This document shows positions 17,322 to 20,360 of a stretch of 64,000 nt of DNA, one piece after another; within the stretch, counting starts at the first letter, position 1, and the number at the start of each line of letters is the position of its first letter. The notes under the pieces are model-generated. The model ran no database searches, was not told the origin of the DNA, and saw nothing but the letters and a program-made list of their open reading frames with translations. Position numbers and translations under genes: made by a program. Origin of the DNA: an uncultured Acidobacteriota bacterium (GTDB taxonomy: Bacteria; Acidobacteriota; Vicinamibacteria; Vicinamibacterales; UBA2999). Where the stretch lies: assembly GCA_963773045.1 (NCBI GenBank), contig CAVYZT010000013.1, positions 207,137 through 271,136 on the forward strand, written 5' to 3'.

Positions 17322-18509
17322 GTGACGACCAACCGCAGCGCGTTCGAAGATCGGCGTCCCGATGCGGCGTCGCTGCTCGCCAAGCTCAACGAGAGCGACC
17401 GGGCTCGGCTTCGCGTGTACATCGGCGCGGCGCCAGGGGTCGGCAAGACCTATCAGATGCTCGAGGACGCGCATCAACTGAAGCGCCAGGGCATCGACGT
17501 CGTCATCGGCTACATCGAGCCGCACGGCCGCGCCGACACACTGTCGCTGGTCGACGGGCTGGAGATCGTCCCGCGGCGGGTCCTGTCGTACCGGGACGTG
17601 AAGCTCGAGGAGATGGATGTTGAGGCGATCAAGGCGAGGAAGCCGCAGATCGTCCTGGTGGACGAGCTGGCGCACACCAACGTGCCCGGCTCAGCGCACG
17701 AGAAGCGGTACGAAGACGTCCTCGATCTGCTGAACAGCGGCATCTCCGTGATCACGGCGATCAACATTCAGCACATCGAGTCGCTCAACGACGTGGTCGT
17801 CAGAAGCAGCGGCATTCACGTGCGCGAGACCGTTCCAGACTGGTTTCTGCACCGCGCCGACGAGGTGGTCAACGTCGACGTCTCGGTCGAGACGCTGCGC
17901 ACGCGCCTGCTGCAGGGCAAGATCTACGGCGTCGAGAAGATCGAGCAGGCGCTCGCCAACTTCTTTCGCAAGGGCAATCTGTCGACGCTGCGCGAGCTGG
18001 CGCTGCGCCAGCTGGCGATGAACCAGGCCGAGCAGTCGCACGAGTATCGCGAGCGCGAAGGGCTCGAGGACCCGGCGATTCCGGAAAAAGTGATGGTCGC
18101 CATCGCGTCGCGCGGCAGCGCGACGAGACTGCTGCGCACCGGGTCGCGAATCGCCGGCCGGCTGGCGTCCGACTGGTACGCCGTGTACGTCGAGACGCCG
18201 AGCGAGGAGCCAGGGAGTATCACTCCCGAGGCGCACGCCGCCTTGATGAACAACATCCGCTTCGCCGAGCATCTCGGTGCGCGCGTCGTCAAGCTCAAGG
18301 GCAAGCGCGTGGCCGACGCGCTCATCGAGTTCGCGCGCCGCGAAGGCATCACGCACGTGATCTTCGGGCAGTCGGCCAGGTCGCGCTGGAGCCTCTTCTG
18401 GAGCGGCTCGATCGTCAACCGCTTCCTCGCCGAGGTGAGGAATGCCACCGTCCACGTCGTCCCGCAGGGGCCAGACGACGAGGCGAAGGCGGGCGAGGCG
18501 CCCGCATAA
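17322..18509 (+). CDS. Stand-alone KdpD N-terminal sensor domain plus Usp domain protein (paralogue 2, intact Walker A)
   Basis: LRVYIGAAPGVGKTYQML...VVIGYIEPHGR...VDELAHTN...KRYEDVLDLLNSGISVITAINIQHIESL, then a Usp-like half. No membrane or kinase part. Confidence 0.85.
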   Translation: MTTNRSAFEDRRPDAASLLAKLNESDRARLRVYIGAAPGVGKTYQMLEDAHQLKRQGIDVVIGYIEPHGRADTLSLVDGLEIVPRRVLSYRDVKLEEMDVEAIKARKPQIVLVDELAHTNVPGSAHEKRYEDVLDLLNSGISVITAINIQHIESLNDVVVRSSGIHVRETVPDWFLHRADEVVNVDVSVETLRTRLLQGKIYGVEKIEQALANFFRKGNLSTLRELALRQLAMNQAEQSHEYREREGLEDPAIPEKVMVAIASRGSATRLLRTGSRIAGRLASDWYAVYVETPSEEPGSITPEAHAALMNNIRFAEHLGARVVKLKGKRVADALIEFARREGITHVIFGQSARSRWSLFWSGSIVNRFLAEVRNATVHVVPQGPDDEAKAGEAPA

Positions 18510-18511
18510 CC

Positions 18512-20360
18512 ATGACGCTCCGCACACGCCTGATCGGGACCTTCGTGGTCATCCTCGCCGCGCTGGCCGGCCTCGGCGCATGGAGCGCCTGGCGGCTGTG
18601 GGACATGGGTGCCGTCTCCAACCGCATCATCGCGGACAACTACGGGTCGGTCGTGGCCGCCCAGCAGATGAAGGAGAGTCTCGAGCGCCAGGACTCGGCG
18701 CTCCTCTTCGCGCTGGTTGGCGAACGCGATCGGGCCGAGCGGCAACTGGCAGAGCATCGGGCGCGGTTCCGCGCCGCGTTGGCGGTTGCCGCCGACAACA
18801 TCACCGAGCCCGGTGAATCGGAGATCATCGCCGCGATCTCGAAGGCAGAGCCGCAGTACGCGGCGACCATCGACCGGCTGATGGCCGCAACCCTCTCTCC
18901 CGCTCCCGGCAAGAGCGTGCGCGGGTATTTCGACGAGGCCGAGCCCGCGTTCAACCAGCTTCGCGCCGACAGCGACGCCCTGCTCACCTTGAACCAGGAG
19001 GCGATGCAGCGAAAGGCCACCGACGCGGCGACGATCGCCCGCCGCAATTTCACGGTGGCGGTGACGCTGGCCGTGATCCTGACCCTGGCTGGCGGCCTGA
19101 TCGCGGCGGTCGTGGCCGGCGGGGTGCTTCGTCCCATTGGCGAACTGACCCGTGCGACGACGGCCATCGCGGCCGGTGAGCTGGATGTCGCCGTTCCGGT
19201 CCGGCGCGACGATGAGATTGGGCGGCTGGGGCAGGCGTTCAACGACATGGCCGGGCGGCTGCGCGAAGTGCGCGAGTCGAACCTCGGCGAGCTGCTGATG
19301 GCGCGGCAAACCGCCGAAGCCGCGATCGATTCGCTCTACGACCCGGTGATCGTCACCGACGCGCAGGGCCGGGTCACGCGGCTCAACAACGCCGCCGAGC
19401 CGCTGTTCGGGCGTGAGTCCGACGCGCACGGCCGCCCGCTGGCTGAGGTGGCGCGCGATCCGCTCGTCGCCGACGCCGTCAGCGAGGTGCTGAGCTCGCA
19501 GCAGGCCGTGGCCCTCGAAGGCGCGGCGGCGACTTTCACCGTGAACGTGGCCGATACCGAGCGCAGCTTCAGGCTGCGTTCGACGCCGATGCGCGACTCG
19601 CACGGACAGCTGCTGGGCGCCGTGCTCCTGCTCGAGGACGTCACGCATCTTCACGAAGTCGATCGCCTGAAATCGGAGTTCATCGCCGCGGCCTCCCACG
19701 AGCTGCGCACGCCATTGACGAGTCTTGAAATGGGGCTGCACCTCGTCCTCGAAGATCCGAGCAATCTCACCGCGCGCCAGCAGGAGATTCTGTACACGTG
19801 CCGCAGCGAAAGCCGGCGGCTCGCCCGACTGTCGACCGACTTGCTCGATCTGTCGAAGATCGAGTCGGGTCGGACGCCCCCGCGACTGGCGAGCGTTCCG
19901 ACCGCCGCGCTGGTGCGCAGCGCCATCGAGCCGCTCCGCCTGCAGGTCGAGGCCCAGGGGCTCGGCCTCGTCGTCGAGGTCGAGCCAGACCTGCCGCCGG
20001 TGCTTGCCGACCGCGCCCAGATCGAGCGAGTTCTCGCCAATCTCGTGACCAATGCCGCGCGTGCGACTCCGCGCGGCGGCCGCATCACGGTCACGGCCGA
20101 CCTGCGGCAGGACTACATGGCGATTGCCGTCGCCGACACCGGCGTGGGCATCCCGGCGGAGTACCTGAGACGCATGTTCGAGCCGTTCGTCCAGGTGCCC
20201 AACGTCCCGGCTGGCGCCGGCGGCCTCGGTCTGGCCATCTCGCAGACGGCTCATCGAGGCGCACCACGGGCAGATCTCCGCTCAGTCGGCGCCGGGATCG
20301 GGCGCCGTCTTCACCTTCACGTTGCCGGTCGCACACGCGGCGGCCGAGGTGGAGACGTGA
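18512..20360 (+). CDS. Sensor histidine kinase (TM-4HB periplasmic-TM-HAMP-PAS-HisKA-HATPase_c) with an apparent 1-nt insertion near 20246
   Basis: H-box SHELRTPLTSL. N and G boxes present. After GLGLAISQ the conserved tail RLIEAHHGQISAQSAPGSGAVFTFTLPV..ET-stop is found only in the +2 frame (stop 20358-20360). Confidence 0.8.

Follow-up and report, generated by a model that had tools for sequence, protein, structure and literature searches.

We analysed a 64,000-nucleotide (nt) stretch of DNA from an uncultured Acidobacteriota bacterium (the window), which carries a locus for the K+ pump KdpFABC. Our subject is a pair of adjacent genes at the end of the kdp operon, the first coding for a protein made up of KdpD's N-terminal domain and a Usp domain (KdpD-N/Usp) and the second for a membrane sensor kinase with a large periplasmic loop. 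This neighbour of the stand-alone KdpD-N proved to be conserved and often translationally coupled to it. The window holds two KdpD-N/Usp proteins, of which the one at the end of the operon is here called copy 2. Domain calls on the open reading frames (ORFs) come from Pfam and NCBIfam profile scans. The loci of relatives that we compared with the window are labelled with L-numbers (L001, L083, L165 and so on); the closest, L083, is a Joint Genome Institute (JGI) metagenome contig that is about 90% identical to the window and fully syntenic with it. The features on which the argument turns are the following (TM, transmembrane helix).

7828-8874, minus strand: KdpD-N/Usp copy 1, 348 residues, divergent from the DUF4118 kinase (Pfam KdpD, profile positions 2-174 of 210)
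8970-10079, plus strand: DUF4118-HisKA-HATPase_c kinase, 369 residues, like the C-terminal half of KdpD (Pfam)
10076-10804, plus strand: KdpE-like response regulator of the OmpR family, 242 residues (Pfam Response_reg and Trans_reg_C)
14940-17045, plus strand: KdpB, P-type ATPase (Pfam E1-E2_ATPase and Hydrolase)
17322-18509, plus strand: KdpD-N/Usp copy 2, stand-alone, 395 residues, GTG start (Pfam KdpD and Usp)
18512-20360, plus strand: sensor kinase with TM1, a periplasmic loop resembling a four-helix bundle (4HB), TM2, HAMP, PAS, HisKA and HATPase_c (Pfam)
20243-20246, plus strand: one surplus base, after which the kinase is read in the regulator frame (alignment to L083)
20357-21061, plus strand: response regulator, 234 residues, with a receiver and a C-terminal domain of about 115 residues (Pfam, receiver only)

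The stand-alone KdpD-N/Usp protein

The KdpD domain of copy 2 is full-length (PF02702, 307.1 bits, profile positions 2-208 of 210), and its Usp match is marginal (24.5 bits against a cut-off of 24). Pfam finds nothing beyond these two domains, and the protein has no TM, GAF, HisKA or HATPase_c part. Walker A (GAAPGVGKTY) and Walker B (VDELA) are both intact and fit the catalytic pattern of short KdpD proteins, namely G-x5-GKT, an aromatic residue after GKT, and D-E in Walker B. The best NCBIfam model is NF038185, a model for KdpD-like non-kinase potassium sensors, with 419.3 bits under a curated cut-off of 550, and the sequence matches PDB entry 2R8R (E 5e-62). KdpD-N has been described as an atypical serine kinase whose phosphorylation target is Ser162 of KdpB, a residue of the TGES motif, and which thereby inhibits the pump, and stand-alone KdpD/Usp as one of five common KdpD versions, active by itself in vitro (PMC11018627, excerpts). 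The KdpB of the window carries ITGESAPV, the TGES motif with the regulatory serine, and we take copy 2 to be a putative kinase of this atypical type, with KdpB as its substrate.

Scanning copy 2 against one genome per species gave 80 loci at 69-75% identity, labelled mostly Blastocatellia, Pyrinomonadaceae, Vicinamibacterales or Acidobacteriota. The Walker motifs (GK[TS] plus an aromatic residue, and D-E) are retained in every one of the 80 orthologues, including the 13 from loci that lack the neighbouring kinase; KdpD-N therefore has a function of its own, most simply that of a serine kinase. The E. coli-type Usp motif RxxxR-x8-WxAVY is present in the window protein and in 79 of the orthologues. 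The motif assigned to c-di-AMP (cyclic di-adenosine monophosphate) in S. aureus KdpD, SxS-x20-FTAxY in Usp region I (PMC4686210), occurs neither in the Usp domain of copy 2 nor in 79 of the 80 orthologues, so that an input other than c-di-AMP is plausible for copy 2.

The adjacent sensor kinase and its reading frame

The TAA stop codon of copy 2 (18507-18509) stands 2 nt ahead of the kinase ATG at 18512. The kinase has hydrophobic segments at about residues 5-27 and 179-210, separated by a loop of about 150 residues, and its match to 4HB_MCP_1 (PF12729) is marginally above the gathering score (28.7-29.5 bits against 27); the kinases of relatives score 33.5 and 41.6 bits with the same family. 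Its top NCBIfam models are WalK, PnpS, AtoS, NblS and PhoR, and the KdpD model PRK10490 is outside the best 25. Pfam gave no match to DUF4118 (PF13493) in this kinase, which rules out an ordinary DUF4118 KdpD region as its N-terminus. Judged by these profiles, the kinase is not derived from KdpD.

As written, 18512-20360 comprises 1849 nt, a length not divisible by 3. The ORF that opens at 18512 runs on to 21061 and would encode 849 residues, fused to the receiver domain of the next gene; its HATPase_c match covers profile positions 2-84 of 111 (62.3 bits) and is followed directly by the receiver. In the DNA alignment at about 20243, the window reads ATCTCGCAGACGG where L083 reads ATCTCG-AGGCGG. 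Removal of one base at about 20243-20246 restores a 615-residue kinase with HATPase_c at positions 2-110 of 111 (94.7 bits), which ends at the TGA at 20358-20360 and overlaps the GTG of the regulator. L083, which is without the extra base, has separate genes for a 615-residue kinase and a 234-residue regulator that overlap by 4 nt, and all seven other close relatives with listed ORFs have separate genes as well. In an independent Logan assembly, whose regulator is 100% identical, a separate upstream gene ends 4 nt into the regulator; the insertion is therefore not present in that assembly. A second insertion of 1 nt interrupts the K+ transporter gene kup at about 23344, so that two isolated, uncompensated insertions fall within about 15 kb aligned to L083, and both are probably indel errors of the assembly, less probably genuine mutations of very recent date. 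Since the kinase frameshift is most likely such an error, we presume that the module is functional in the organism.

An earlier note on this DNA, made from the letters and ORF translations alone, had described copy 2 as a 395-residue KdpD-N/Usp protein after kdpB with an intact P-loop and no membrane or kinase part, and had placed its stop codon 2 nt before the kinase; Pfam, the Walker motifs and the codon positions agree with it in all of this. Its account of the kinase, with two TM helices, a 4HB-like loop, HAMP, PAS, HisKA and HATPase_c and no DUF4118, also stands as to architecture, but it overlooked the extra base, and the ORF is not intact.

Intact kinase orthologues in relatives have 608-630 residues. 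Three loci have an orthologue of 858-866 residues with a C-terminal extension of about 250 residues (L004, 4594-7170; L005, 11167-13767; L032, 4287-6872). Pfam found no domain in the L004 extension, and tblastn found no adjacent receiver-domain regulator in these three loci.

The regulator next to the kinase

Among the NCBIfam models, AtoC and NtrC come closest to the receiver domain of the regulator. Its C-terminal domain (20708-21058) was modelled confidently by AlphaFold2 (predicted local distance difference test 82-86) in the order four strands, two helices, strand, helix. Foldseek against the PDB returned no meaningful fold match for this domain (best E 0.01 and TM-score about 0.36, to tyrosine phosphatases) and only receiver-domain matches for the whole regulator. 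The BLASTP alignment with KdpE reaches the OmpR-type effector domain and covers a few residues of its first strand, which is too weak for a DNA-binding call. The domain is rare (a set of 1.84 billion proteins contains 148 representative clusters of it) and is found elsewhere as a stand-alone protein, at the N-terminus of proteins of 246-252 residues, and in one fusion to an NYN nuclease (P0423). As modelled, it is a conserved, uncharacterised fold without a Pfam match. Orthologues of the regulator, of 234-256 residues, come after the kinase in relatives. One locus, L080, has lost the kinase and kept the receiver-plus-novel-domain regulator directly after KdpD-N (11182-11934).

Conservation of the KdpD-N/kinase pair

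We placed the window proteins on the 80 loci by tblastn and found the kinase adjoining KdpD-N in 63 species-level relatives, in either order. The loci divide as follows.

Kinase directly downstream of KdpD-N: 55 of 80 loci
Kinase directly upstream (kdpABC-kinase-KdpD-N): 8 of 80 loci
Kinase remnants only: 2 of 80 loci
Kinase absent, flank sufficient: 13 of 80 loci
Flank too short to judge: 2 of 80 loci

The two genes are spaced by -4 to about +330 nt in relatives, and overlaps of 4 nt occur several times. A search in the opposite direction took only the sensor and HAMP region of the kinase as query against metagenomes. KdpD-N was adjacent or close in 11 of 14 informative loci with a sensor identity of at least 44%, in 15 of 24 at 30-43%, and in 11 of 22 below 30%. 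The distant pairs consist of a KdpD-N/Usp protein of 374-388 residues followed by a TM-loop-TM-HAMP-PAS-HisKA-HATPase_c kinase, with an overlap or a gap of at most about 30 nt.

Distant pairs of low guanine-cytosine (GC) content fall in clusters that NCBI labels Chitinophagaceae and Bacteroidales. In the Bacteroidota-labelled L165 the order is sigma-54 NtrC-type regulator, kdpABC, BBP2 porin, KdpD-N and kinase; a search of the intergenic region 5' of kdpA in this locus gave no sigma-54 promoter match with two or fewer mismatches. In a group of 63% GC, the KdpA cluster bears Polyangia (Myxococcota) labels; here, in L109 and L167, kdpFABC is divergent and the KdpD-N gene shares 4 nt with the kinase gene, and in L167 the pair is followed by genes for a Ser/Thr kinase and for a homologue of the 307-residue protein encoded downstream in the window. 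L001 has the pair, and kdpABC is missing from the flanks fetched. The pair is thus kept across the surveyed loci while its surroundings change: it is the constant element, and operon orientation, regulator type and other neighbours vary.

Loci with enough flank to judge both two-component systems have both in 22 cases, DUF4118/KdpE only in 8, this kinase only in 7, and neither in none. Evolutionary distances of KdpD-N and of the kinase sensor plus HAMP are correlated: r is 0.85, the partial r conditional on KdpB is 0.61, and three control pairs reach 0.02-0.26. Based on 27 loci only and lacking a sound test of significance, this is a weak but suggestive sign that KdpD-N and the kinase sensor diverge in step.

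Other genes also adjoin KdpD-N. An APC-family permease gene (Pfam AA_permease_2) does so in L008 (11915-13801) and L081 (6101-7940), and ORFs that are N-terminally like the L008 permease stand beside KdpD-N in L021 (11847-14258) and L049 (11632-14037). The permease occurs beside KdpD-N in the kinase-upstream group too.

Comparison with known Kdp systems

Serine-kinase and histidine-kinase chains are often split in Acidobacteriota and Chloroflexota, the latter chain having the composition TM/GAF/DHp-CA (PMC11018627, excerpts), and in Deinococcus and cyanobacteria a kdpBAC-kdpD-N operon is accompanied by a divergent sensor kinase and regulator (PMC5716572). The window has the components by which the published split KdpD is recognised, with KdpD-N at 17322-18509, the DUF4118 kinase at 8970-10079 and the KdpE-like regulator at 10076-10804, and a separate KdpD-N ends the kdp operon as in D. 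radiodurans and cyanobacteria (PMC5716572). The stand-alone KdpD-N and the DUF4118 kinase/KdpE half of the locus are in this sense ordinary and already published. The second kinase is different: whereas the partner in known split systems is the C-terminal half of KdpD (TM/GAF/DHp-CA), copy 2 adjoins a TM-4HB-like-TM-HAMP-PAS kinase with a non-OmpR regulator.

Copy 2 resembles the Deinococcus geothermalis protein DgKdpD in consisting of KdpD and Usp only, in keeping Walker A and B, in its position at the end of the kdp operon and in the TGES motif of its KdpB (PMC11018627, excerpts). It differs in its score with NF038185 (419 against the cut-off of 550) and in being closely trailed by a membrane kinase that is not KdpD, an arrangement of which the available excerpts of PMC11018627 make no mention. 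It is also unlike the S. aureus c-di-AMP type in having the E. coli-type Usp motif. In E. coli itself, the KdpD-N/Usp module is likewise joined with a membrane histidine kinase, there in one full-length chain, which is natural evidence that both kinds of module work together; unlike the window proteins, however, E. coli KdpD is a single polypeptide with four DUF4118-type TM helices, small periplasmic loops and a GAF domain, and it has an OmpR-type regulator.

The window kinase shares the order TM, helical periplasmic sensor, TM, HAMP, PAS, HisKA and HATPase_c with KinB of the Pseudomonas KinB-AlgB system. KinB is the name that JGI gives to homologues of the kinase, and the likeness is one of architecture and names only. 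The regulator of the window, unlike that of KinB, has no AAA+ or helix-turn-helix part, and the kinase has no sigma-54 NtrC-type cognate, although L165 has one. We know of no link between KinB and kdp or KdpD-N.

Interpretation of the KdpD-N/kinase pair

The explanation that fits these observations best, to which we give about an even chance, is that copy 2 and the adjacent kinase, which brings its own regulator, form a bipartite, re-wired KdpD beside the canonical DUF4118 kinase and KdpE. Immediate gene order, when conserved, predicts physical interaction, and it is from gene order that we infer that KdpD-N is coupled to the kinase, physically or functionally. The kinase would replace the usual DUF4118/GAF membrane half, providing a membrane anchor and, through its helical periplasmic loop, an extracytoplasmic input, probably K+ or ionic conditions, and it would act on or with KdpD-N by protein contact. 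It would also signal through its own regulator, with its receiver and novel domain, or through the sigma-54 NtrC-type regulator that stands in its place in L165, while the upstream DUF4118 kinase and KdpE would run ordinary transcriptional control in parallel. KdpD-N would phosphorylate the serine in the TGES motif of KdpB and so switch off the KdpFABC pump (as in PMC11018627, excerpts).

How a short KdpD, which lacks TM and GAF parts, senses K+ has been called a conundrum, for which c-di-AMP was proposed as the answer (Silberberg et al. 2024, PMC11018627, excerpts); c-di-AMP stimulates the short KdpD of D. geothermalis (same excerpts). The pair recurs under three phylum labels, among them Bacteroidota and Myxococcota, which are listed as having mainly short KdpD (PMC11018627, excerpts), and it may supply the external sensor that has been missing for bacteria with only this form. 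We would go further only tentatively, since we find it rather doubtful that a KdpD-N/kinase complex lets external K+ or ionic conditions, sensed by the helical periplasmic domain, gate KdpB phosphorylation directly, as the missing K+ sensor of short-KdpD bacteria in Acidobacteriota, Bacteroidota and Myxococcota, and with a regulator that acts post-translationally instead of binding DNA. If the two proteins do cooperate, many soil and gut bacteria run their high-affinity K+ pump through an unstudied sensor.

Several points weigh against a bipartite KdpD. The kinase gene is frameshifted as written in the window, its 4HB call is marginal, and no solved structure matches its sensor by sequence. 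The output domain of the regulator has neither a Pfam nor a PDB match, and the correlation of distances has the limits given above. The 13 relatives that hold an intact KdpD-N without the kinase indicate that KdpD-N is independent of it. Co-transcription within one regulon could be the cause of the adjacency, and most relatives have a single KdpD-N, which might just as well pair with the DUF4118 kinase upstream, as in the published split.

In the main competing explanation, which we consider quite possible, though short of an even chance, the genes belong to one regulon without direct coupling. KdpD-N would be an autonomous serine kinase of KdpB and might, as in Deinococcus and cyanobacteria, partner the DUF4118 kinase in trans as well, and the kinase and its regulator would be an independent, co-regulated two-component system controlling kdp or other ion-homeostasis genes. 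This is consistent with stand-alone KdpD/Usp being common and working by itself in vitro (PMC11018627, excerpts), with the 13 loci that have KdpD-N and no kinase, with the combination of one KdpD-N and an upstream DUF4118 kinase/KdpE in most relatives, and with the fact that the kinase owns an overlapping regulator. Co-regulation sits less easily with an adjacency that persists under three phylum labels despite the changing context, the stop and start codons often overlapping, with the pair in L001 that has no kdpABC within the fetched flanks, and, weakly, with the distances of KdpD-N and the kinase sensor, which track each other above the controls. One may also postulate that the kinase of the window is a true pseudogene and the pairing a relic, or that the 849-residue kinase-receiver fusion is the functional form. 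The ORF is indeed unbroken over 18512-21061, receiver included, and kup, a second K+ gene, is likewise broken by a 1-nt insertion; yet the last quarter of HATPase_c is lost as written and restored by removing one base, kinase and regulator are separate genes in L083, the seven other close relatives and the Logan assembly, and the remainder of the kinase gene is without decay, all of which makes this improbable. We rejected the 849-residue hybrid itself on the truncation of HATPase_c at 84 of 111 and the lack of the insertion in L083 and the Logan assembly. Finally, an unrelated kinase might adjoin KdpD-N by chance, for which nothing speaks except that HAMP-PAS kinases are generically abundant in Acidobacteriota; the recurrence in 63 of 80 species and in distant lineages effectively rules this out.

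Returning to the bipartite KdpD, the earlier note had proposed that the cytoplasmic sensing module of KdpD was paired with a different sensor kinase, and had named two findings that would speak against it: absence of the pairing in relatives, as expected of random adjacency, and an ordinary DUF4118 region at the kinase N-terminus. Neither was found, the pairing being present in both orders in relatives and also in Bacteroidota- and Myxococcota-labelled contigs, and PF13493 giving no Pfam match. The conserved adjacency favours the proposed pairing, and the term sensing module is too narrow, KdpD-N being a serine kinase (PMC11018627, excerpts). The note knew of no described example, and we found none in the full-text literature, whose coverage leaves out most subscription journals. 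The pairing of KdpD-N with a HAMP-PAS kinase is apparently an undescribed variant of split KdpD.

The further suggestion, that the locus carries two parallel split-KdpD circuits, is only partly right and overstated, because copy 1 is degenerate. Its Walker A reads GAGAHLGRT, with GRT instead of GKT, and relative to copy 2, to which it is 45% identical, and to E. coli KdpD, about 32 residues are missing where its KdpD domain ends; its Usp score is under the Pfam cut-off. Among 5.8 billion proteins it has one close homologue (76%), the next being at about 52%, and the 80 relatives have a single KdpD-N each in the stretch fetched. On its sequence, copy 1 is a degenerate, lineage-specific paralogue, and it may be a non-catalytic regulatory copy.

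Other genes of the locus

The remaining genes of the kdp region are listed below. Starts were set at MRNSFSV for the porin and at MAKHSRT for KdpB.

10993-12186, plus strand: BBP2 (OmpL-like) outer-membrane beta-barrel porin (Pfam PF07642, 200.6 bits)
12513-14219, plus strand: KdpA (Pfam PF03814, 770 bits)
14309-14902, plus strand: KdpC, ahead of kdpB (Pfam PF02669, 227.5 bits)
21077-22000, plus strand: 307-residue protein, N-terminus like that of a lipoprotein (..AVGC), 4HB_MCP_1 match partial (Pfam, 34.6 bits)
21984-23873, minus strand: Kup K+ transporter in two overlapping ORFs (629 and 406 residues), 1-nt insertion at about 23344

The DUF4118 kinase at 8970-10079 has the KdpD model PRK10490 as its top NCBIfam match (model positions 650-883), and the regulator at 10076-10804 scores 214.8 bits with the NCBIfam KdpE model, under its cut-off of 325. 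Kup is intact in L083 (614 residues); the window copy has one extra base. Scans of 10700-22100 for promoters and terminators, and of the whole window with Rfam, gave nothing informative.

The structural genes of the window (12513-17045) have the order kdpA-kdpC-kdpB, as in L083, unlike the order A-B-C of nearly all other relatives among the 80; L012 and L027 have further kdp rearrangements or a second kdpA. BBP2 porin genes lie in or beside kdp operons in Acidobacteriota-labelled loci (the window; L083, 641-1837) and in a Bacteroidota-labelled one (L165, 7589-8683), and the porin may serve K+ uptake specifically, as a channel through the outer membrane.

Homologues of the 307-residue protein, of about 300 residues, are encoded downstream of the kinase in L083 (10765-11640) and L167 (12942-13880). 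This 4HB_MCP_1-like protein, which comes after a Hanks-type Ser/Thr kinase in the Polyangia-labelled loci, could be an accessory to the sensor in the periplasm.

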